A stretch of DNA of 64,000 nt from Escherichia coli (GTDB lineage: Bacteria > Pseudomonadota > Gammaproteobacteria > Enterobacterales > Enterobacteriaceae): the NCBI RefSeq assembly GCF_001677475.2, contig NZ_CP015229.1. One strand, 5' to 3'. The notes under the pieces are model-generated. The model had not been told where the DNA came from and did not search any database. It saw nothing but the letters and a program-made list of their open reading frames with translations. Made by a program: the position numbers and the translations under genes. Shown piece by piece: positions 1 through 10,808 of this stretch (positions are counted from its first letter, which is position 1; every line of letters starts with the position of its first letter).

Positions 1-854
1 ATCATCGCCAAGGTCAAGATGGGTTGCCCCAGTTTTTCCCACAGTGCAAGGCGGTATTCGCTGCTGGGTTGCCCGGTTTCCTGCAAATAATGGATGTAAT
101 GATTAAGCTGACGGACAGAAAAAGTATTCCCCGGCATCGATAACTCTTCAAGATTCATACTGGTGAAGGCCGATTGGCAGGCAAGATTATCTAATGTTTC
201 CAGCGTTTCTTTGCCATTCAGCCATTTTTTATGATTCACACCATGCAGGATCCACGTTTTGTCGTCTTCAATGGTGGCACTGCGTGCATAAATGTAGGAT
301 TCGAGCGAAAGATCGTCACGATAATGAAAAATCTCCACGCCCACCGGCTGGCCCTGCTCGTTCAGCGATTTCACCGTCACAAATTCATTACCACGCCTGG
401 CCCACAGCATATTGCCGGTAATGTCATCGTCCTCCCCCAACGCAGTGGCGGTCGATTTGATTTGCAGCGCCTGTTGCTGCAATGGCGACGCCACCCACTC
501 ATCTATTGCGCCTAACGAAACAGTCCACAATATCCCAGCAACCAGCGCCACCAGTGCAATACGGAAGATAGAAAACCCAGTGCTGCGAATGGCGGTAAGC
601 TCACTGTTTTTCGATAACTGCCCCAGGCCGACAATCCCTCCCAATAAGGCGATAAACGGCGAAAGTTCGACCAGTGTGCGCGGTAAGGTCATCAGCACCA
701 CCAGCACCGCCTGAGTCCAGCGATAACCGCCCGGGCTGACATCATCCAGTTCGTTAATCAGGTTGAAGGTGGTAAAAAGCGGCAGCAATAGCCCTGCGGC
801 GGCGGCAAAACCGAGAAAGAGATGACGGATCAAATAGCGACTGAAAACATTCAT
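1..854 (-). CDS. LptG/YjgQ-family permease paralog, partial (C-terminus beyond window start)
   Basis: Hand translation of the minus strand from ATG at 854 gives MNVFSRYLIRHLFLGF... with a hydrophobic N-terminus, a conserved SELTAIRSTG segment and a long periplasmic-type middle region, open to position 1. Start overlaps the upstream stop as ATGA. Not in the ORF track because it runs off the window. Confidence 0.7.
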   Translation of the reverse strand, partial: MNVFSRYLIRHLFLGFAAAAGLLLPLFTTFNLINELDDVSPGGYRWTQAVLVVLMTLPRTLVELSPFIALLGGIVGLGQLSKNSELTAIRSTGFSIFRIALVALVAGILWTVSLGAIDEWVASPLQQQALQIKSTATALGEDDDITGNMLWARRGNEFVTVKSLNEQGQPVGVEIFHYRDDLSLESYIYARSATIEDDKTWILHGVNHKKWLNGKETLETLDNLACQSAFTSMNLEELSMPGNTFSVRQLNHYIHYLQETGQPSSEYRLALWEKLGQPILTLAM

Positions 855-1921
855 CGGGAAAATTTCTGCAGCAAAGAGAAGTCGCGTGCGACCAGCATCA
901 GCAGGCCCATTAGCATGAGTCCGGGCACTAACCACAAACCAGGAATGAGAGGAATCGCGCCGTTAGCCACCAGCGTACGGCAGACGTCGCCGCCATAAAA
1001 AATGGCAATAAACAGCAACGTCAGTGGCAATAACGTTGAAAATCGCCCCTGCCGCGGTTTTACCCGACTTAATGAAATGGCCAGCAGCGCCATCAACAAT
1101 GCTGTCAGGCCACGGCTTTGTCGCCATTGCAGTTCGGCATGATCGGCTGGAAAGACGGAGCGCGCCAGCTCCGTGACCGATTTTGCTTTGCGTTTGACGT
1201 TAGGGCTTTGATCCAGCGGATTCAGATGTAATTGCAGATTACGGTAGATCTGTTCGTTGTCGTCACGCCCCTGATGATCGAGAAGGTAGGCGGTCCCGTT
1301 ATGCAACATAACGGTCGGTTTCTCGGGTGATGGGTCAACCACATCAACCGAACGGGCGCGGAAAATGCGGGTTCGATTGGCAGTAGAAGTATAAATCAGC
1401 GCGTCAGTCAGGCGATTATTATCCTGATCAACCGTCTGCGAAAGGATCATTCGTCCGTTATCGTTAGTGTTAAATTTCTTTGCCCGCAACTGGCGAACAT
1501 CCAACTCCGACTGCGACTGTTGCTCCAGTTGATAAATCTGCGCATAAGCCCACGGACGACCATACATCGACAGAAGGGTGACAAAAATACTTAGCGGTAT
1601 CGCCAAATTAAGAACGGCTTTGTACAAGCGTCCCGGACTGCCCCCCGCCGCAGAGATAGCGGTAATTTCCGAGTCGGTATACATCTGCCCTAGCGTCACG
1701 CCAACTGACACATACAGTCCAACAGGTAACAACATCTCCAGTGCAATCAGCACTTTGTAGAAAACGATATCCAGCACAACATCAAGTGCTAATGTCCCAT
1801 TTGCCGCTTCGGTCAGATAACGCTGTGCGGAGTAGCTGGCGAAAATAAAGATCAGAAAACCGACGATAATCAGCACCAGACGGCGCGTACCACGCATGAT
1901 GTAGTGTTCAACCAGCTTCAT
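851..1921 (-). CDS. LptF/YjgP-family permease paralog (356 aa)
   Basis: ORF track 851..1921. The N-terminal TM region and the GQMYTDSEITAISAAG motif resemble LptF (GKLYTESEITVMHACG), followed by a ~150-aa hydrophilic insert and C-terminal TM helices. Start may instead be Met9. Confidence 0.75.
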   Translation of the reverse strand: MKLVEHYIMRGTRRLVLIIVGFLIFIFASYSAQRYLTEAANGTLALDVVLDIVFYKVLIALEMLLPVGLYVSVGVTLGQMYTDSEITAISAAGGSPGRLYKAVLNLAIPLSIFVTLLSMYGRPWAYAQIYQLEQQSQSELDVRQLRAKKFNTNDNGRMILSQTVDQDNNRLTDALIYTSTANRTRIFRARSVDVVDPSPEKPTVMLHNGTAYLLDHQGRDDNEQIYRNLQLHLNPLDQSPNVKRKAKSVTELARSVFPADHAELQWRQSRGLTALLMALLAISLSRVKPRQGRFSTLLPLTLLFIAIFYGGDVCRTLVANGAIPLIPGLWLVPGLMLMGLLMLVARDFSLLQKFSR

Positions 1922-1951
1922 CTCACTAACGCCCTCAATCCTTTGAGTTTT

Positions 1952-2515
1952 TTATTCATTGATCAGCTTCTGCGCCAGCGCAATGACATGATCTACCTCT
2001 TCCGGCGTCAGGCTGCCGTCCTTTGCCCACTGAATTTGCCCGGCTTTATTCAGCACCAGAATGGTTGAACTCTGCTCCGGCAAGCGCCAGGCAATGCGTC
2101 CCAGTCCATTGCCGTCAATAACGAATTGCGCCCACGGATAGCGGCGTTTATTTTTTTCGATTTTGCCAACGACAAAATAGCCGGTACCAAAAATGGCATC
2201 ATCGGTGTTCACAATGGTGGTGGGCTGAAAACGATCCTGCGGAAAGTTTGCCGCTTCAACCGCTTTAATTAACAGTGAGTTCTTTTTCTTCGCCGACTTA
2301 CGCCCAGCGATATACTGAATAATGCGAACTTTTCCCGCCAGCTGTGTGCTGTTCCACTTTTGGTAGTGAATTTCGTCGTCGCTATTCAGAAGCAGCTCGC
2401 CGCCTTCCTGGATATAAACAGGGGTAACCGTTTTGCCAGTGACGAAATTGTGTGCCTGCACACCCGGGGCTAAGAGCATGATAATCAGCGCAATAATCAA
2501 ACGAGATGACATCAT
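1952..2515 (-). CDS. YtfJ-family periplasmic protein (187 aa, signal peptide)
   Basis: N-terminal signal sequence MMSSRLIIALIIMLLAPGVQA; overall similarity to E. coli YtfJ from memory (motifs TTIVNTDDAI, QWAKDG.LTPEEV). Confidence 0.65.
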   Translation of the reverse strand: MMSSRLIIALIIMLLAPGVQAHNFVTGKTVTPVYIQEGGELLLNSDDEIHYQKWNSTQLAGKVRIIQYIAGRKSAKKKNSLLIKAVEAANFPQDRFQPTTIVNTDDAIFGTGYFVVGKIEKNKRRYPWAQFVIDGNGLGRIAWRLPEQSSTILVLNKAGQIQWAKDGSLTPEEVDHVIALAQKLINE

Positions 2516-2523
2516 TGCTCCGG

Positions 2524-3348
2524 TTATAGCGGAAAACGCGAAATCAGCAGCTCTAAGCGCTGGCGAATATCGCTATCCAGCGCCACCGGTGCATCATACG
2601 ACTGGCGGTTTTCCATATCATCCGCCACCATGTCGTCGTGTTTATCCCCCATCAGGCCATTAATGGCGGCGAGGAAACGGGAAATCTGTAACGCCTCTTT
2701 ATTTTCAGGATCAAGCGATCTTAGGGTGTCGTAATAAGAAACCTGCTGGCTGATGATTTTTCGCACATCATGAAATTCCCTGCCGGTTAGTCGCGGTTTG
2801 GCGATTATCTCTTTCAGGGTATGCATTTGCTTTTGCCGATAGGCAATAAAACCGCTTACGATTTCTAACTGGCTATGGCGTAATGAATAGTTCACCAACG
2901 ACCAGACCGGAGAGCTTAAATAAATTCGTAACAGGTTGCCGTAATACGACACAATATTTTTCTTACCGTTACGAAATCCGTCCTGAAAACGTCCCAGAAA
3001 AACGGTCGTTTTGCCGAATAAAAATCTGGCCTGATGCTTTTTTAAATACAGCCGTTGTGCAAAACGCAGATGCTTGTAGCGCGCTCGCATGTATTTAAAT
3101 TGTTTGCGCTCATCAGCAGTCAGCTCATCGCCTTTGGTCTGTTTGCGAATTAAACGCAGTAACTCCTGGCGATTAACGCCATTGAGCCAGAATTGCAGGC
3201 ATAACGCGTAATTATCATGGATGATTTCGGTGGTACAACTTAGTGCAATAGTCGGCGGCAAACTAACCTGTGCATCAACGACATCATCTTCTTCAATCGC
3301 AACAAATAGACGCTCGCTCGCCTCAAGCGGGAAATATTTTCTCATCAT
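2524..3348 (-). CDS. Hypothetical basic cytoplasmic protein (274 aa), function unknown
   Basis: Uninterrupted ORF; start overlaps the yghQ stop (ATGA); 8 bp before the next gene. No motif I recognise. Confidence 0.6.
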   Translation of the reverse strand: MMRKYFPLEASERLFVAIEEDDVVDAQVSLPPTIALSCTTEIIHDNYALCLQFWLNGVNRQELLRLIRKQTKGDELTADERKQFKYMRARYKHLRFAQRLYLKKHQARFLFGKTTVFLGRFQDGFRNGKKNIVSYYGNLLRIYLSSPVWSLVNYSLRHSQLEIVSGFIAYRQKQMHTLKEIIAKPRLTGREFHDVRKIISQQVSYYDTLRSLDPENKEALQISRFLAAINGLMGDKHDDMVADDMENRQSYDAPVALDSDIRQRLELLISRFPL

Positions 3349-4697
3349 CAGGATTTCTCTCCGGCTGCGTTATAAAGCAAGGAATGGCGCTGAAAAAATG
3401 CCTTTAAGGTTGGAATTAGCGAGAGCGCTACATCCAGACATTGCCCAGCGAAGTAAGCAAATGCAGCCCCCAGCACGCCAAACAGATGACAGAACATGAA
3501 CAGCAATACGATGTAGCCGATTGAGGCGATGGTTTGCGCCACGAGAAAAGCGCGCTGTTTTCCCGCCATCAATAGCAATGACTCCTGCGGGAAGCCCAGC
3601 ATCGAAATCACAATTGCGCCCAGCATCACCTGAATCAGGTCATACGCTTCGAGATACTTAACGCCAAACACCAGCGAAATGAGCGGCTTGCCGACGATCA
3701 ACACCGCGAGCGCCACCAGAATACCGATTCCGCCCGCCAGTAAACCGGACTTCACACCTAACAACCAAGGTCTGGTGGTGCGCGGATCTAAACGCATCAC
3801 CTCTGGGTAAAAACTTTTACCCAGCAAACCCGCTGGCGTTCCGGCGGCGTCGAAGAATGTCATGGCGATTTTAAATAACCCGGCGGCAGCGGGTCCTAAC
3901 ACGATCCCCACCAACACTGTGCTGCACGAATTACGCGCCGACCAGATGGAATGGGCAATGTTGGTTGACCAGACAAAACTCCACGAGCCTTTGATGTGTC
4001 GGGCAGACTCAAACAGATTCAATTTGAACGCGTTATGGACATTTCTGCGGCGTAATTCACGTGCGGCAAACCACCAGTACATGGTACCGCCAACAAGATT
4101 CGAGGCGTACCAGGCAATAACAAAACCCGCAAAACCAAAGTCAAAATACCAGGCAACGACGCTCCCCGCTGCACGCAGAAAAGGTTTCGTCGCCTGCTGT
4201 ACAGCAATTAAATCGAAGCGATCTACCGCACGCAGAATGCCGGTCGGCGTGGAGGAAGCCATTGAAGGAATGAGCGTGCAATAGAGCGCTGCCAGCCAAA
4301 AACTTTGGTCATCCAGACCTAATGAATGGGAAAGGAATGGCAGTAAGGCAATGCCGCCGACAATCGCCACCGCGCCGCTGACGATATCCAGCGAGAAGGA
4401 AAAAGAGACGACATTGCGAAATTGCTGCGGATTATTGTTGGTTAATGCTGGTGTTCCGTACTGAACCACCAGCTGCCATGTCTGAAACTTAATAAAATCG
4501 CTGATCGACTTGGCGTACGATTGCACAATCACCAGTACGCCAAACATGGCGGGCGTCATCCCTTTACCGGCACACGAGAGCGCCAACAGACCCAGCAAGG
4601 CGCTCACGACATTACTGGAGCCTAACCAGGCGCTATTGCGAATAATGGTGCGAAACGCGCCATCTGCAAACCAATGTTTGATGTTAAAACCCGCCAA
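3348..4697 (-). CDS. yghQ: Putative MOP/Wzx-type polysaccharide or lipid flippase, full-length 449 aa
   Basis: Polytopic membrane protein of the polysaccharide-biosynthesis (flippase) family; position immediately downstream of yghR as in K-12, where I recall YghQ as a shorter 355-aa product. Confidence 0.8.
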   Translation of the reverse strand: MAGFNIKHWFADGAFRTIIRNSAWLGSSNVVSALLGLLALSCAGKGMTPAMFGVLVIVQSYAKSISDFIKFQTWQLVVQYGTPALTNNNPQQFRNVVSFSFSLDIVSGAVAIVGGIALLPFLSHSLGLDDQSFWLAALYCTLIPSMASSTPTGILRAVDRFDLIAVQQATKPFLRAAGSVVAWYFDFGFAGFVIAWYASNLVGGTMYWWFAARELRRRNVHNAFKLNLFESARHIKGSWSFVWSTNIAHSIWSARNSCSTVLVGIVLGPAAAGLFKIAMTFFDAAGTPAGLLGKSFYPEVMRLDPRTTRPWLLGVKSGLLAGGIGILVALAVLIVGKPLISLVFGVKYLEAYDLIQVMLGAIVISMLGFPQESLLLMAGKQRAFLVAQTIASIGYIVLLFMFCHLFGVLGAAFAYFAGQCLDVALSLIPTLKAFFQRHSLLYNAAGEKS

Positions 4698-4741
4698 TTC
4701 AGCCTGAACTTATCGTTGATAGTAAAAAGTATCCGCCAGCC

Positions 4742-5500
4742 TTAAGTTAAACTTCGGCGGTCAGAAACGATGGCAACCAGAGAAACCGCCTTCTGTGCCT
4801 GTTCCAGCACTTCGCTGTAGGGCGCTCTGGAATCAATCTCAAGAATTTTTGTGCCGTTATAGCCAATCGTCGACATGACGCCGATTTTGTCCTGCAGCTC
4901 GGCATAGTCATGGTCAGGCTTGCGGGAGATGGCAGTATCAATATCAATCCCCAAACGAATGATTAATTCAGGACGGTATTGCGCCATTTGTTGGTATAAA
5001 CGCCGTTCGCGCTGCGCCAGAAACATGCTGATTTTCCCGGTCGCACGTTCGACGCCGATCCCCGGTCCGTCATAATAAAAGCCCGAAATTTCAGCCTGCG
5101 GGAAGCGATCGCTGACCACCAGAACGCCACTTTGCGCCAGTCGCTGAACCTTGCGTAGATTCGCCATTCTTCGCAGCGAGAAGCAGTACATAATCACCGC
5201 CGCCCATAGCGCTGGAGATTTGGTTTTCATGCTTTGGGTTTTCGAGGATTTGGCCGCCAGTCGCCGTTCGAGCCAGACGCCAACCAACGGCAATCGTTTG
5301 ATTTTGTCGCCGTCTTCGCCGGAGAGCAGCCCCAGATAGCGGCGCTCAGTTTGCCAGTGTTGTTGCAGCGATTTCACCAGGTCAGTGGTCAGTGTGGATT
5401 TACCGGTGCCATCACACCCGACCACCGCAATCAGCCCCGGAATGTAGTTGGGCTGCGGCGCGGTTGTACTATTAACAGTTTGTGTTTGTAGTGCATCCAT
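4742..5500 (-). CDS. yghR: P-loop NTPase / kinase-like ATP-binding protein (252 aa)
   Basis: Walker A VVGCDGTGKST, DRFPQ and ARKPDH motifs; length and position match K-12 yghR. Confidence 0.85.
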   Translation of the reverse strand: MDALQTQTVNSTTAPQPNYIPGLIAVVGCDGTGKSTLTTDLVKSLQQHWQTERRYLGLLSGEDGDKIKRLPLVGVWLERRLAAKSSKTQSMKTKSPALWAAVIMYCFSLRRMANLRKVQRLAQSGVLVVSDRFPQAEISGFYYDGPGIGVERATGKISMFLAQRERRLYQQMAQYRPELIIRLGIDIDTAISRKPDHDYAELQDKIGVMSTIGYNGTKILEIDSRAPYSEVLEQAQKAVSLVAIVSDRRSLT

Positions 5501-5529
5501 TCGTTAAATCATCCCTATCCATTTGGTGA

Positions 5530-6243
5530 TCAGGAAAGCGCGGCGTGAATTGCGCGTAGTGACGCTTGCAGAATTTCATCGGCTGGTTGCCGACCATCCA
5601 GTTCAAGGATCTTTGCGCCATTGAATGTCAGTTGCGGCGTAACGGCGATTTTTTCCTGTAACGCTGCCAGTTGGTGGTCAGGTTTACGCGCAAACGCGGT
5701 TTGTTCATCAATGCCAAGACGAATCAACAATACGGGCAAATAAGACGCCATCCATTGGTACAGCTTCAGCTCGCGCTGCCTTAACATTTTTATCCAACCG
5801 TTACCGCCCGTAGTTTTTGCCAATTGCGGGCCATCAAAGCGAAAACCCGGCACTTCAACCTGCGGGTAGCGGTCGGTGATGAGCAGATAGCCTTGCTGGC
5901 TTTTACACAACATTTTGCGAAACTTGTACGCCCGCCAGCAGGAAAGCAGATAGATAACCAGTGCAGTAATATTGCCAGGCGGTGTTGAGGGCTTTTCGTG
6001 CACATGTGCCGCTTTACTTCGCAGATAACGCCCAAAAGATGCGCCAATAATGGGCAGCTGTGAAATCCATTCGCCAATTCGCCCGGACGATTGCCCGAGA
6101 TAAATGTGTTCTGTTGGCATTCTTGCTGCCAGTTCATTTACCAGGCTTGCCGTGAGGGTCGATTTACCTGAACCATCACATCCTACAATGGCAATAACAC
6201 GCACTGGCGTGGAATTAATTATTGACATATTACGTTGATTCAC
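5530..6243 (-). CDS. yghS: P-loop NTPase / kinase-like ATP-binding protein (237 aa)
   Basis: Walker A IVGCDGSGKST, DRYPQ and ARKPDH motifs; paralog of yghR. Confidence 0.85.
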   Translation of the reverse strand: MNQRNMSIINSTPVRVIAIVGCDGSGKSTLTASLVNELAARMPTEHIYLGQSSGRIGEWISQLPIIGASFGRYLRSKAAHVHEKPSTPPGNITALVIYLLSCWRAYKFRKMLCKSQQGYLLITDRYPQVEVPGFRFDGPQLAKTTGGNGWIKMLRQRELKLYQWMASYLPVLLIRLGIDEQTAFARKPDHQLAALQEKIAVTPQLTFNGAKILELDGRQPADEILQASLRAIHAALS

Positions 6244-6416
6244 GAAAAACCCGGCAGCAAATAATGTATTGAATATTACGTGGTCCGTGCTCAGAATATC
6301 CGTTCAACCTTATTGTGACAATGGTTAATTGTGACATTGACCTGAATTACGCTTTCATAAAAACATATTAACCAAATAAATATTTTTAATGGATATTTAA
6401 ATTAAAGGATATATTC
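6244..6416. promoter_or_regulatory. Divergent yghS / yghT promoter region with direct repeat of ATTGTGACA
   Basis: AT-rich 173 bp between divergent starts; (t/a)ATTGTGACA at 6311-6320 and 6327-6336. Confidence 0.4.
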
Positions 6417-7109
6417 ATGCAGTCAATAACACCTCCATTAATTGCCGTTATTGGTAGCGATGGTTCAGGCAAGTCAACGGTGTGTGAACATCTCATTACC
6501 GTTGTCGAAAAATATGGTGCTGCCGAAAGAGTTCATTTAGGAAAACAGGCCGGAAATGTCGGTCGTGCAGTGACAAAATTACCGTTGATGGGAAAATCCT
6601 TACATAAAACAATTGAACGAAATCAGGTGAAAACAGCAAAAAAATTGCCTGGCCCTGTTCCGGCGCTGGTAATTACAGCGTTTGTCGCCCGTCGCTTACT
6701 GCGCTTTCGTCATATGCTTGCCTGTCGTCGTCGCGGGTTAATTGTTCTAACCGACCGTTATCCTCAGGACCAAATTCCTGGCGCTTACGATGGTACGGTG
6801 TTCCCACCTAACGTTGAAGGTGGTCGTTTTGTCTCATGGCTGGCAAGCCAGGAACGTAAAGCGTTTCACTGGATGGCGAGCCATAAACCTGATCTGGTCA
6901 TCAAACTCAATGTCGACCTTGAAGTTGCCTGCGCGCGTAAACCCGACCATAAACGGGAATCGCTGGCGAGGAAGATTGCCATAACGCCACAGTTAACCTT
7001 TGGTGGTGCACAACTGGTTGATATCGACGCCAATCAGCCACTGGAAAAGGTGCTGGTTGATGCAGAAAAAGCGATTACGGATTTTATGATCGCGCGTGGT
7101 TATCACTAG
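6417..7109 (+). CDS. yghT: P-loop NTPase / kinase-like ATP-binding protein (230 aa)
   Basis: Walker [17 protein letters not shown] and ARKPDH motifs; third paralog, divergently transcribed. Confidence 0.85.
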
Positions 7110-7157
7110 TCAAAAATGGAAATGCCCGATCGCCAGGACCGGGCATTTTCAGGAAGG

Positions 7158-8657
7158 TTAAATCAACTGCAATGCTATCCAGTACAACCCACCAGAAAGA
7201 AAAATCGCCGCCGGTAAAGTAAACACCCACGCCATCAGGATGCTGGTTACCGTTTTACGCTGTAACCCACCGCCGTCCACCACCATCGTCCCTGCTACCG
7301 CAGACGAGAGGACGTGTGTTGTGGAGACGGGCATCCCAATATAACTGGCAAGGCCGATAGACACTGCCGCCGTCATTTGTGCCGCCATGCCTTGCGCATA
7401 CGTCATGCCGCGCTTACCAATCTTCTCACCGATGGTCATCGCTACACGACGCCAGCCAATCATGGTGCCAATGCCGAGCGCCAGAGCTACTGCCATGATG
7501 ATCCACACCGGAGCGTACTCAATGGTGCTTAACATATCGCTGCGCAGTTTTTTCAGCAGGTTCTGGTCTTCTTTACTGACGCCTGGCAGTTTCGCCAGCT
7601 TCGCGGAGGTATCAGAGATGCACAGCATAATGCGGCGCAGCTGGCTGCGCTGACTCACGCTTAACGGCTCGTAACTTTCCATATTGCCTGGCAGCATCGT
7701 TTTAACGCGCGCAATCGCATCAAAGGTATTTGCCGGATGACAGTGAAACTCCGTCACTTGCGCGCCATCAGTCGATGCCGCAGGCAATGGAGGTTCCATC
7801 GTAATCAACTTCTGCGGCAGTTCAGGATGCTGTTGCAGGTAGTGTTCGAAGTTGGTGACGGCATCGCGGGTACGGGTAATTTCATAGCCGGACGCGTTCA
7901 TATTGACGACGAAGCCAGCAGGGGCAATCCCCACCAGTACCAGCATCACCAGGCCGATCCCTTTCTGCCCGTCGTTAGCGCCGTGCGAAAACGCCACGCC
8001 CGCAGCGGAAACAATCAGCGCAATACGCGTCCAGAATGGCGGCTTACGTTTGCCTTTTTTCTTTTTGCGATCTTCCGGAATGCGGTGAATACGGTCACGC
8101 TTTTTCGTCCCGCTCCAGAAACGGCGCAGCAGGAAAATCAGACCACCCGCAATGACCAGGCCGACGATAGGGGAAACAATCAGCGAGGAGAAAATTTTGG
8201 TCACTTCACGCAGGTTTAACGCATCCATCACCGATGAGCCGGTTAACAGCGCGTTGGTTAAACCGATGCCGATAATTGCACCAATCAAGGTGTGCGAACT
8301 GGAGGCCGGTAAACCAAAGAACCACGTTCCCAGGTTCCAGATAATCGCCGCCAGCAGCATGGAAAAGACCATCGCCAGACCGTGGGTTGACCCCATATTC
8401 AGCAACAAATCGGTTGGCAACATATGGACAATGGCATAGGCAACGCTAAGTCCGCCCAATAACACGCCAAAAAAATTAAAAAATGCCGCCATCACCACAG
8501 CAAGTTGTGGTTGCATGGCACGAGTATAAATAACGGTTGCCACCGCATTCGCCGTGTCATGAAAACCATTGATTGCTTCGTAGAACAACACAAATGCCAG
8601 AGCAAGTAATAACAAAAGCCCTGTGTATATATCAAGGCCAACAAATAAATTTAGCAT
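7158..8657 (-). CDS. pitB: Low-affinity inorganic phosphate transporter (PiT family, 499 aa)
   Basis: PiT-family membrane protein with internal K/R-rich cytoplasmic loop; adjacent to gss as in K-12. Confidence 0.9.
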
Positions 8658-8898
8658 ATATTAGATTACGCCATTTTGAATTTACGAACGGACGCATTAT
8701 CAGTGACTTTAACGGCGTGGGCAAAGTGAAATATCATTTTTTAACGATAAAAAGAGTGTTATTTCTTGTGTATCAGACAATAAGCATTCATTCAAAACCT
8801 TTAGAATTAATCAAAACATAGCTATTCCACTGGTTAATACATTCACATATGAAATAAATAAATATTGGAACATATAAATATTGAATATTTTGATTAAT

Positions 8899-8933
8899 CC
8901 CCGCACTGATTATTCTTCATAATCAGTGCGGGG
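8899..8933 (-). terminator. Perfect 15-bp-stem hairpin 16 bp downstream of gss
   Basis: ccccgcactgattat / ataatcagtgcgggg inverted repeat with 5-nt loop. Confidence 0.5.
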
Positions 8934-8948
8934 TTGCTACAACATGTA

Positions 8949-10808
8949 TTACTCTTTCACCACAATTAACGGTTCAATATCACTCTCTTTTTTAATGACC
9001 AGTGATTCATCACCGCGCAAACACGTCCCACCGTAGTTGCCGCCAACGGTGAAGGTACATACCTGAATGTATTTACCGTCCACTTTCGGCAAACACCACA
9101 GTTGCTGATAGATGTTTTTCTGCTCGGCAAATTTACCGCTGGTTTTGTCCAGCACCTCTTCATGATGGCTGACGAGGTCGATGTTACTGCCACAGCGACC
9201 GGCGATCGGTTTCACTGCGTAACCTGTTTTTACCAGTTCATCATTAACAGTGAAATCGGTATCCAGCAGGTAGCGATGGTGCGGGAACAGCGACCAGAGG
9301 ATCGGCAGAATCGCTTTGTTGCCGGGGATCACTGTCCACAGAGGTTCAAAGACCAGCACTTCCGGGCGCAGCAATACGTCGATAAGACGCACTTCATTTT
9401 GCGGATGACCGGTACGGATCGGCACCGCAGCAAACTCACGGTCGCTAACTTCACGAATCTGATCAAACGCGGTTTCCCACGCCCAGGTTTTCCACACGCA
9501 GTTAACCAGTCGCCCTTCCCCATCAATCAGTTGCCCGGCAGCATCCCAGCCCAGTTCATCCAGCCCGCGCAAGATACGCGTTTCAAAGCCCGCCTGGTGC
9601 AGCGCCTGCTCCATAAACTGCGCGTGATAGTTTTCCTCGATATCTTTGTCCTGCATGATATGGACAAACGGACGTGCACGACTGTGTTTCCAGGCACCAG
9701 CCAGTTCGTTAATCAGCCCTTCCGCCGGATTGAAGCCGTTGCCTTTATAGCCCTGCTCCGCCCAACGTTCGAGGATCAAGCCAGCTTCGGTATGACAGGA
9801 GGCGGAGTCGGCGTTGTATTCGTAGACCTTCAGGCCACGCTCATCCATGCAGAAATCCATACGACCGGTGATCATATGGTGACGGCGACGCTGCCAGGAG
9901 AGACGCAAACGTGGCCAGAGGATTTTCGGAATGTCGAACAGCGCCAGCAGGTTGTCATCTTTTAGCACCTTGTCGGTTGCGTGAAGATACATCAGGTGCA
10001 GCTCGTTGGTGGCTTTAATCAGCTCCTGCTCGGCGCTCTCGGTAATGGTGTAGTAATGATACGGATCCTGATTGATCACCTGACCGTTGGCCTGCACATA
10101 GGCGTTTTGCAGCGGATCTTTTTCATCCAGCCATTTACCGTCAAACTGGCCTTTGTTTTCCAGACGCGCTCCGCTGATTTTCAGCAGCTCGCCTGCAATT
10201 TCCGGCTGCGGTAAGCTGTATTCAGTATCTTCCGTCTGGATCATCCAGCCCAGAATGGTGGTGTCATCAAAAGTGTCTTTAAGGGTATAGCAGCCGTTTT
10301 CGACCACCATCTCCAGCTCGCGCGTCCACTGTTGTCCTTGCGGCAACGGGGAATGAATCACGTTCTGTTCCGCAATACGGACTTTGTTGCCATGCAATTG
10401 GGTAATGATGGCGACATGGCCGGTGTCTTTAAATTCACCGCCTTTATCCCAGATAAGAAGCGCACCCGCGACCGGCGCACGCGGCGAGCCGTTAGGAAAT
10501 GCCTGCAATGGCAGGATGTTGTCATTAACCACTTCACGCAGGAAGCGCAGCGAGAAAATCTCCCACGCCATACCCACGTCAGTGAAGACCACACCGTAGT
10601 TCAGAAAGAGAAAACGGCGAGCAAATTCAACGCATTGCCATTTGTGGCCCATATATTCGTCGTCGATATAGCTACGGAATACGGCGTCATCTTCGTATTC
10701 CTGCGGATCGAGAGAACTGTAATCTGAAGAGTAGATTGCTACCCCACCTGGGGCGTAGCCCAATAATGTCCCGAACGGGGCATCCTGGCTGGTCGTTCCT
10801 TTGCTCAT
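8949..10808 (-). CDS. gss: Bifunctional glutathionylspermidine synthetase/amidase (619 aa)
   Basis: Begins MSKGTTSQDAPFGTLLGYAPGGVAIYSSDYSS; N-terminal CHAP-type amidase plus C-terminal ATP-grasp synthetase. Confidence 0.95.
   Translation of the reverse strand: MSKGTTSQDAPFGTLLGYAPGGVAIYSSDYSSLDPQEYEDDAVFRSYIDDEYMGHKWQCVEFARRFLFLNYGVVFTDVGMAWEIFSLRFLREVVNDNILPLQAFPNGSPRAPVAGALLIWDKGGEFKDTGHVAIITQLHGNKVRIAEQNVIHSPLPQGQQWTRELEMVVENGCYTLKDTFDDTTILGWMIQTEDTEYSLPQPEIAGELLKISGARLENKGQFDGKWLDEKDPLQNAYVQANGQVINQDPYHYYTITESAEQELIKATNELHLMYLHATDKVLKDDNLLALFDIPKILWPRLRLSWQRRRHHMITGRMDFCMDERGLKVYEYNADSASCHTEAGLILERWAEQGYKGNGFNPAEGLINELAGAWKHSRARPFVHIMQDKDIEENYHAQFMEQALHQAGFETRILRGLDELGWDAAGQLIDGEGRLVNCVWKTWAWETAFDQIREVSDREFAAVPIRTGHPQNEVRLIDVLLRPEVLVFEPLWTVIPGNKAILPILWSLFPHHRYLLDTDFTVNDELVKTGYAVKPIAGRCGSNIDLVSHHEEVLDKTSGKFAEQKNIYQQLWCLPKVDGKYIQVCTFTVGGNYGGTCLRGDESLVIKKESDIEPLIVVKE

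Follow-up and report, generated by a model that had tools for sequence, protein, structure and literature searches.

The yghRST locus

In this work we analysed a stretch of 64,000 nucleotides (nt) of an Escherichia coli chromosome (assembly GCF_001677475.2, contig NZ_CP015229.1; hereafter the window), and specifically three adjacent genes within it, yghR, yghS and yghT, whose products are P-loop proteins. T, S and R designate the paralogue types resolved by the family tree described below. The three genes are the following:

4742-5500, minus strand: yghR, 252 amino acids (aa), R-type paralogue of the dTMP kinase superfamily, from the list of open reading frames
5530-6243, minus strand: yghS, 237 aa, GTG start, S type, heading the minus-strand operon
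6417-7109, plus strand: yghT, 230 aa, T type, divergently transcribed

The encoded proteins are 99.2% (YghR), 98.3% (YghS) and 99.1% (YghT) identical to those of strain K-12. The gene order agrees with the original prediction, which had placed two of the genes in an operon with a flippase gene and the third divergent from it. That prediction had also regarded the products as three paralogues with a shared motif set, and a full-length relationship is borne out by pairwise blastp comparisons over about 217-220 residues: YghR and YghS are 44% identical (E 6e-63), YghS and YghT 37% (E 6e-55), and YghR and YghT 34% (E 4.5e-47). The likeness (34-44% identity, E values of 1e-47 to 1e-63) extends far beyond the Walker A motif, the proteins can be aligned over their whole length, and 57 columns of the three-way alignment are invariant. 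Judged by these alignments, it is homology and not chance.

The individual motifs were located by regular expressions and translation of their coordinates. The P-loop reads GCDGTGKST in YghR (aa 28-36, nt 5393-5419), GCDGSGKST in YghS (nt 6157-6183) and GSDGSGKST in YghT (nt 6453-6479). The central motif is VVSDRFPQ in YghR (nt 5096-5119, with DRF at aa 131-133), LITDRYPQ in YghS (nt 5860-5883) and VLTDRYPQ in YghT (nt 6744-6767); the segment had been recognised before, but its actual pattern is [VIL][ST]DR[FY]PQ and not (V/L)(V/T)DR(F/Y)PQ. The C-terminal motif ARKPDH, previously attributed to all three proteins, is present in YghS (nt 5674-5691) and YghT (nt 6933-6950), whereas YghR has SRKPDH (aa 192-197, nt 4910-4927). 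A regular-expression search of all three sequences found neither LSGGQ nor LSGG, and the fold is not that of ABC proteins; on these two grounds an ABC ATPase was ruled out, as the earlier statement that these are not transporter ATPases had it.

Superfamily assignment of YghR, YghS and YghT

A profile of 55 family members matched thymidylate kinases (TMPKs) of the PDB with E values of 1.5e-11 to 5e-9, in three aligned blocks that comprise the P-loop, the DRX motif and the LID/C-terminus, and it aligned with the E. coli thymidylate kinase Tmk over 194 columns (95% hhalign probability, 17% identity). Both the overall fold and the profile homology point to the dTMP kinase (dTMPK) superfamily. Among the 55 homologues, D23, G24 and G26 of the P-loop are invariant and K27 is 98% conserved; R125 of the DRX motif is invariant and D124 is 98% conserved (D124-R125-Y126 in YghS); and in the LID segment R186 is invariant and position 187 (K187) is Lys or Arg in 98%. 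All three paralogues carry an acidic residue at the third position of the P-loop (GxDGxGKST). Their DRX motif (DRF in YghR, DRY in YghS and in YghT) aligns with the DRH of E. coli Tmk, and their LID segment lines up with the KRKGE / RARARGE LID of TMPKs. None of these catalytic residues, from the Lys and acidic residue of the P-loop to the Asp-Arg of DRX and the Arg-Lys of the LID, is missing from YghR, YghS and YghT, nor is any other residue that is invariant in the family; we predict the three proteins to be catalytically competent and, from their separate conservation, non-redundant.

An alignment with E. coli Tmk revealed that its dTMP-binding motifs REPGG and S/TxxAYQ are replaced by YLGxxSG and PQxExPGxxDGP, respectively. 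The family-specific PQxExPGxxDGP and Glu158 (E158) are invariant, and a basic helix ahead of DRX (R104, K/R107, R109, K110) is conserved. TIGR00041, the NCBIfam model for dTMP kinase, scored the three proteins at 30.9, 24.7 and 25.6 bits and its curated cutoff of 83.25 was not reached; a Pfam scan, for which YghR was the sole member of the trio scanned, returned generic AAA matches and Thymidylate_kin (PF02223) at an i-E of 0.18-0.29. Compared with Tmk (TIGR00041 / PF02223), the three proteins are only about 17-26% identical, lie below the family cutoffs, carry an extra segment of about 20 residues between beta2 and beta3, and are encoded as three copies inside an envelope-lipid operon, whereas the housekeeping tmk is located elsewhere in the E. 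coli genome. A true Tmk was ruled out by the sub-cutoff TIGR00041 scores, the replaced dTMP-binding residues and this separate tmk. As far as sequence comparison goes, YghR, YghS and YghT are an uncharacterised branch of the dTMPK superfamily and not thymidylate kinases.

In the matching complete E. coli genome (L001, 13533-15112), RefSeq/PGAP names YghS and YghT 'dTMP kinase' and YghR 'hypothetical protein'. Since the scores are below cutoff (25-31 versus 83 bits) and the dTMP-binding residues are missing, the former label is doubtful; it is probably an over-annotation, spread over thousands of records. Homology to CpgB, the ceramide kinase of Caulobacter, was also considered and rejected: CpgB is a sphingosine-kinase-like lipid kinase of the DAGK/GGDG type, unrelated to P-loop kinases (PMC10331486), and the Pfam scan of YghR returned no DAGK domain.

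Age of the triplication and breadth of the family

Serratia marcescens and Carnimonas (Halomonadaceae) share the layout of the trio, with one divergent and two tandem genes. YghR has its own orthologue in Serratia (71% identity) and in Carnimonas (55%), as has YghT (68% and 56%, respectively), which is divergently transcribed there too; altogether, orthologues from E. coli, Serratia and Carnimonas are 55-71% identical, versus 32-46% for paralogues. Because each paralogue has its own orthologue in both genera, the triplication is ancient, each copy having been kept separately, and not a recent local event. When 131 family members from 60 loci were placed in a neighbour-joining tree, without support values, they separated into T, S and R clades, in which Enterobacterales, Xanthomonadales, Beta- and Deltaproteobacteria and a part of the Sphingomonadales are represented. 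Where a taxon has only two kinases (Acetobacteraceae, Novosphingobium, Pseudomonas), one is of T type and the other is 'S/R-like', branching off before S and R separate, and two or more paralogue types (T plus S/R type) nearly always co-occur. The minimal conserved set is then two distinct paralogue types, the third deriving from a later, although still ancient, duplication; and the conservation of two distinct types suggests non-redundant roles, either as successive steps or within a hetero-oligomer. Tandem fusions of two kinase domains were observed in P0121, P0122 and P0124, with an S-like followed by an R-like domain in P0121. Such fusions are consistent with paralogues that physically work together.

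A more distant branch of the family sits in Wzx/Wzy polysaccharide clusters. It includes proteins of about 500 aa (P0163, P0169, P0180) with an unannotated N-terminal domain of about 260 aa, in which we noted a motif HWKSNxHL...GxTDxDxLV and a nucleotidyltransferase-like appearance. P0252 is another member, and some proteins of this branch are fused to a GT4 glycosyltransferase. In P0270 and P0215, Actinobacteria-like proteins of about 1000 aa, the kinase domain is C-terminal to a MOP flippase, and at another locus (L005, 5721-9482) a family kinase gene comes straight after a Wzx gene, next to sulfotransferase and ATP-sulfurylase genes.

The 274-aa partner and the conserved neighbourhood

Downstream of yghS and yghR, the minus-strand operon continues to the window start with the following genes:

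3348-4697, minus strand: yghQ, intact MOP/Wzx-type flippase, 449 aa, directly downstream of yghR
2524-3348, minus strand: CHAD-like protein ('Ybl138'), 274 aa, overlapping the yghQ stop by 1 nt
1952-2515, minus strand: YtfJ-family protein, 187 aa (TIGR01626, 213 bits, above cutoff)
851-1921, minus strand: LptF paralogue (LptF2-like), 356 aa, lptF in the matching E. coli record
1-857, minus strand: LptG paralogue (LptG2-like), cut by the window start, 286 of 359 aa

The gaps from yghS through yghR, yghQ, the 274-aa gene and the YtfJ gene to lptF are 29, 44, -1, 8 and 30 nt. YghQ matches the NCBIfam MOP flippase model NF007773 with an E value of 9e-9, below the cutoff of that model, and is annotated as 'lipopolysaccharide biosynthesis protein' in the matching E. 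coli record. The LptG paralogue is a 286-codon open frame leaving the window, with lptG annotated at the same place in L001; PF03739 marks the LptF-type genes of the Serratia and Carnimonas loci.

The 274-aa protein had no match when its sequence was searched against Pfam, NCBIfam and the PDB, and its identity came solely from structure prediction and fold search. The predicted structure, a pair of four-helix bundles that carry conserved His and basic residues, resembles solved CHAD structures; most of the residues that do not vary are His, Arg or Lys, and they lie on the two long central helices. By this predicted structure, the 274-aa protein is a CHAD domain. UniProt gives the name 'CHAD domain-containing protein' to its orthologues in Sphingomonas, Acetobacter, Komagataeibacter, Zymomonas, Commensalibacter and Pseudomonas. 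Domains of the CHAD type bind inorganic polyphosphate specifically (PMC6537752), and polyphosphate binding by the 274-aa protein itself is predicted from this fold. A relation of the 274-aa protein to the N-terminal domain of about 260 aa of the approximately 500-aa kinases was tried and discarded (nothing by blastp, 1% probability by hhalign).

We surveyed the neighbourhood of the kinase genes in one genome per GTDB species, which yielded 73 loci, and counted the neighbours encoded within 10 kb of a kinase gene. The steadiest were the 274-aa CHAD-like protein (44 of the 73 loci) and the MOP flippase YghQ (42/73), followed by the sphingolipid proteins Spt and CerR (25/73 each), AcpR (24/73) and AasR (22/73), by LptF2/G2 (15/73) and by YghO (12/73). 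Where the flanks were complete to 10 kb (47 loci), 41 had at least one of Spt, CHAD and YghQ. The 73 loci are spread over Enterobacterales, Xanthomonadales, Sphingomonadales, Acetobacteraceae, Myxococcales, Nitrosomonas, Rhodocyclaceae, Methylotenera, Pseudomonas and others, largely groups reported to have rhodobacterial SPT or to produce sphingolipids (PMC9386255). In Serratia and Carnimonas the trio lies between the spt/acp/AMP-ligase/epimerase genes and those for the flippase, CHAD, YtfJ and LptF2G2 proteins; in Sphingopyxis, Novosphingobium and Gluconobacter the unit consists of the kinases, YghQ and the 274-aa protein alone, which fits the reported scattering of sphingolipid genes in these organisms. 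The YtfJ-like gene, located between the CHAD gene and lptF2, occupies the same position in Serratia, is kept there in Enterobacterales and was counted in 16/73 loci. Its product has a hydrophobic, signal-peptide-like N-terminus and is possibly a periplasmic part of the export route.

A different arrangement was found in Pseudomonas marginalis (L068, 7933-13183), where an spt operon contains two family kinases and neither YghQ nor a CHAD gene. In their place, a 677-aa ABC exporter resembling MsbA lies on one side of the kinases and a CptA-type phosphoethanolamine transferase (618 aa; NF007933, E 1e-242) on the other. CptA-type enzymes decorate phosphates on envelope lipids. In addition, a gene for a small lipid kinase of DgkA type (PF01219) adjoins the locus in Serratia (L002, 2279-2644) and Carnimonas (L004, 12404-12730).

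The sphingolipid island of E. coli and its remnant in K-12

In L001, the genes continue past the window with spt, acpR, the epimerase/reductase gene cerR, the acyl-AMP ligase gene aasR and yghO. What had been described as a flippase operon is the right-hand half of the sphingolipid (ceramide) island of E. coli. The AasR, AcpR and Spt proteins of strain BL21 have been shown to make 3-oxo-sphinganine, and the ceramide synthase gene cerS of Caulobacter has its orthologue in yghO (PMC9386255). Apart from the ceramide synthesis genes, the E. coli island encodes no enzyme-like proteins other than the three kinases; it holds no gene for a nucleotidyl- or glycosyl-transferase and no lptB paralogue.

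In K-12 (NC_000913.3, L081, 3130146-3131340), an IS5 element replaces aasR, cerR, acpR, spt, lptG2, lptF2 and the YtfJ-like and CHAD genes; it cuts yghQ at residue 355 (of 449 aa), whose 3' end is lost, and clips the edge of yghO. The yghR, yghS and yghT genes of K-12 are remnants of a mostly deleted island, of which the window holds the right-hand half intact. Work in K-12 is uninformative on these genes because most of the island has been lost to IS5. In the literature searched, they appeared only in strain lists, in a table from SELEX (systematic evolution of ligands by exponential enrichment) and in a knockout screen, with no function assigned. The DNA of the window is about 98% identical to many E. 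coli chromosomes, and its positions 1-9000 are covered to 80% or more in approximately 4097 of the 5426 complete E. coli genomes.

Intergenic and flanking features

The remaining features around the trio are the following:

6244-6416, no strand: intergenic region between yghS and yghT, 173 nt, 30% GC, divergent, presumed to contain the promoters
7117-7151, no strand: GC-rich hairpin between the convergent yghT and pitB, with a terminator-like 12-bp stem, 15-nt inverted repeat
7158-8657, convergent with yghT: pitB, phosphate transporter

The yghS-yghT intergenic region contains a tandem repeat of 11-12 nt, TTGTGACA(A/T)TG (6312-6339), in two copies 16 nt apart (ATTGTGACAATG / ATTGTGACATTG). Two matches were found in the window versus 0.12 expected, and the repeat is also present in other E. 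coli and, as one copy at the same position, in Hafnia; it may be an operator of some regulator. A promoter and terminator scan gave nothing above shuffled expectation except the yghT/pitB hairpin, which by its sequence resembles a bidirectional terminator, and an Rfam scan of positions 1-9000 returned no RNA family. The island has pitB beside it in E. coli only, and this adjacency is probably coincidental.

Discussion

Taken together, these results delineate a conserved cytoplasmic module made up of two or three kinases, YghQ and the CHAD protein, which in E. coli and many Proteobacteria is embedded in a sphingolipid island. The homology, fold, intact catalytic motifs and separate orthologous groups of the kinases, as well as their conserved synteny and taxonomic spread, are shown by the analysis. 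We tentatively favour, at a little short of an even chance, a role of YghR, YghS and YghT as phosphotransferases of the cytoplasm, which would add phosphate to a sphingolipid head group, possibly to the level of a di- or oligophosphate, ahead of its flipping and export. We are highly confident of the anatomy of the locus and moderately so of the mechanism; what the substrate is, how many phosphorylations take place and in which order, and what the CHAD protein does are inferred. The original prediction had raised the possibility of one lipid-linked or nucleotide substrate common to the three kinases. A nucleotide is unlikely, as the dTMP-binding residues are not conserved, and a lipid head group is the best inference.

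According to this model, (dihydro)ceramide made by the island would arise at the inner membrane, on its cytoplasmic side, and there the kinases would transfer phosphate from ATP to the head group of the lipid, probably in successive steps, giving a di- or oligophosphate. The first phosphate might come from one of the paralogues or from a DgkA-type kinase; the DgkA of E. coli phosphorylates ceramide in vitro. The CHAD protein would bind the anionic phosphate head group, YghQ would flip the lipid and LptF2G2 would extract it towards the outer membrane. A head-group function is suggested for the kinases because the island holds no other candidate for this step, and a di- or oligophosphate because dTMPK-type enzymes typically phosphorylate a phosphate monoester, the partner protein belongs to a polyphosphate-binding fold, and relatives of the MOP flippase handle lipid-diphosphate cargo. 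That a P-loop kinase can act on a membrane lipid is known from LpxK, the lipid A 4'-kinase, and the chemistry of LpxT and EptA/CptA on lipid A is a precedent for lipid-diphosphates in the E. coli envelope and for phosphoethanolamine on lipid phosphates. The CptA-type gene beside the Pseudomonas kinases would fit a chemistry of this kind. The model is also in keeping with the family kinases of distant bacteria that are fused to MOP flippases (P0270, P0215) or encoded right behind a Wzx gene (L005).

The comparison with Caulobacter points in the same direction. Its sphingolipid locus, which includes CpgA-D (PMC10331486, PMC11324152), has spt, acpR, aasR, cerR, cerS, the MOP flippase and LptF2G2 in common with the E. 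coli island, and LptF2/G2 are required for sphingolipid transport there (bioRxiv 10.64898/2026.04.12.717747). It contains a kinase step that yields an anionic sphingolipid, and no dTMPK-like or CHAD gene was found in it; the E. coli-type island, in contrast, has none of CpgA-D and carries the dTMPK-like trio and CHAD instead. Because Caulobacter shares the ceramide genes, the flippase and LptF2G2 but uses CpgA-D, we read the kinases and the CHAD protein as an alternative head-group cassette, and the contrast between both loci is consistent with such cassettes being interchangeable.

Several points weigh against a sphingolipid head-group function. Spt was found within 10 kb in just 25 of the 73 loci, and the link for Sphingomonadales and Acetobacteraceae rests on the known scattering of their sphingolipid genes. 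The distant branch occurs in a Wzx/Wzy setting, so that the common denominator may be a flippase rather than a sphingolipid. We know of no precedent for dTMPK-type chemistry on a membrane lipid, the literature searched contains no biochemical or lipidomic data on YghR, YghS and YghT, and E. coli is not known to synthesize sphingolipids under natural expression. Knock-outs in K-12 have no notable phenotype, although this strain lacks the rest of the island, and the tree on which the T, S and R types are based bears no support values. Besides, Zymomonas has orthologues of CpgB/C together with a CHAD orthologue, which implies that the two head-group systems are not mutually exclusive.

The main rival to the head-group model, which we consider unlikely, is a heteromeric polyphosphate kinase like the PPK3 of Sulfolobus, that is, a hetero-oligomer that interconverts ATP/ADP and free polyphosphate while the CHAD protein binds the polymer; the connection with the flippase and sphingolipids would then be indirect, or the polyphosphate would be exported. 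PPK3 consists of two exapted dTMPK paralogues, cPPK3 (Saci_2019) and rPPK3 (Saci_2020), encoded side by side with a CHAD-type protein (PMC12995831). This resembles our loci, where at least two dTMPK-like paralogues (T plus S/R) are nearly always found together, with a CHAD-type protein at 44 of 73 loci, and the conserved basic helix before DRX (R104, K/R107, R109, K110) would also suit this possibility. Unlike PPK3, however, the trio has no inactive subunit devoid of DRX, since all three paralogues retain the arginine (R125) that rPPK3 lost, and, as far as the profile comparison goes, it appears no nearer to PPK3 in sequence: the family profile favours canonical TMPKs (E 1.5e-11 to 5e-9, three regions) over the cPPK3 homologue 2plr (E 7e-6, P-loop only). 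Genes for PPX, SixA or Pst were absent from the E. coli, Serratia and Carnimonas loci and from the alpha- and gammaproteobacterial loci examined. Most organisms with PPK3 are devoid of PPK1 and PPK2, whereas E. coli has PPK1. PPK3 goes with phosphate-storage genes, and the trio with genes for ceramide synthesis, a lipid flippase and LptFG paralogues. Nor would a PPK3-like enzyme account for the close coupling to MOP flippases, in some cases by fusion, or for the placement in sphingolipid operons.

Two further explanations are less likely, and we regard either of them as quite improbable. Specialised nucleotide or nucleotide-sugar kinases, acting on dTMP or other (deoxy)nucleoside monophosphates, could supply activated donors for envelope biosynthesis, as the 'dTMP kinase' label of YghS and YghT and the fact that TMPKs are the best sequence and fold matches would suggest. 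The scores, nevertheless, are far under the curated dTMPK cutoff, the residues that bind the nucleobase and dTMP are not conserved while the family-specific PQxExPGxxDGP and E158 are invariant, a housekeeping tmk is present, no nucleotidyl- or glycosyl-transferase to use such a donor is encoded in the E. coli island, and three separately conserved paralogues are hard to account for with one nucleotide. The kinase-like proteins could otherwise be non-catalytic or regulatory NTPases, serving as ATP-dependent gates, energisers or assembly factors for YghQ and/or LptF2G2. Kinase-like domains fused C-terminally to MOP flippases (P0270, P0215) or encoded right after Wzx genes would be in line with this, as would the absence of an lptB paralogue from the island, but the fold and the DRX/LID motifs are those of a phosphotransferase, not of an ABC or motor ATPase, and LSGGQ is missing. 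MOP flippases are not known to be ATP-driven, and Pseudomonas keeps the kinases even though an ABC exporter with its own ATPase domain replaces the MOP flippase. Moreover, the LptF2/G2 of Caulobacter bind the housekeeping LptB (bioRxiv 10.64898/2026.04.12.717747).

The lipid-kinase model that we favour and the PPK3-like alternative converge in the idea of a short polyphosphate anchored to a lipid. It is therein tempting to speculate, on what we hold to be a rather slim chance, that the product of the island is a ceramide with a phosphoanhydride chain (di-, tri- or oligophosphate), which would be assembled stepwise on the cytoplasmic side by the T, S and R kinases singly or as a hetero-oligomer, held by CHAD, flipped by YghQ and delivered by LptF2G2 to the outer membrane as a polyanion reminiscent of lipopolysaccharide, and which in Pseudomonas would be capped with phosphoethanolamine.

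The paralogy of YghR, YghS and YghT and the existence of a sphingolipid island in E. coli were already known. In the literature searched we found no description of the trio as a distinct branch of the dTMPK superfamily, of its ancient T/S/R structure, of the module of kinases, MOP flippase and CHAD, of the 274-aa protein as a CHAD domain, or of the head-group hypothesis. YghR, YghS and YghT are long-standing 'putative ATP-binding' y-gene products to which the papers searched assign no function. Our analysis suggests for them a possible route to an anionic sphingolipid head group that would do without CpgA-D in about three quarters of the complete E. coli genomes; the same route might hold in many Enterobacterales, Xanthomonadales, Sphingomonadales and acetic-acid bacteria. 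It would be the second independent exaptation of thymidylate kinases together with CHAD, after the archaeal PPK3. If its product were a lipid-linked di- or oligophosphate, this would be a new kind of outer-membrane lipid, with a bearing on polymyxin sensitivity, envelope charge and host recognition.

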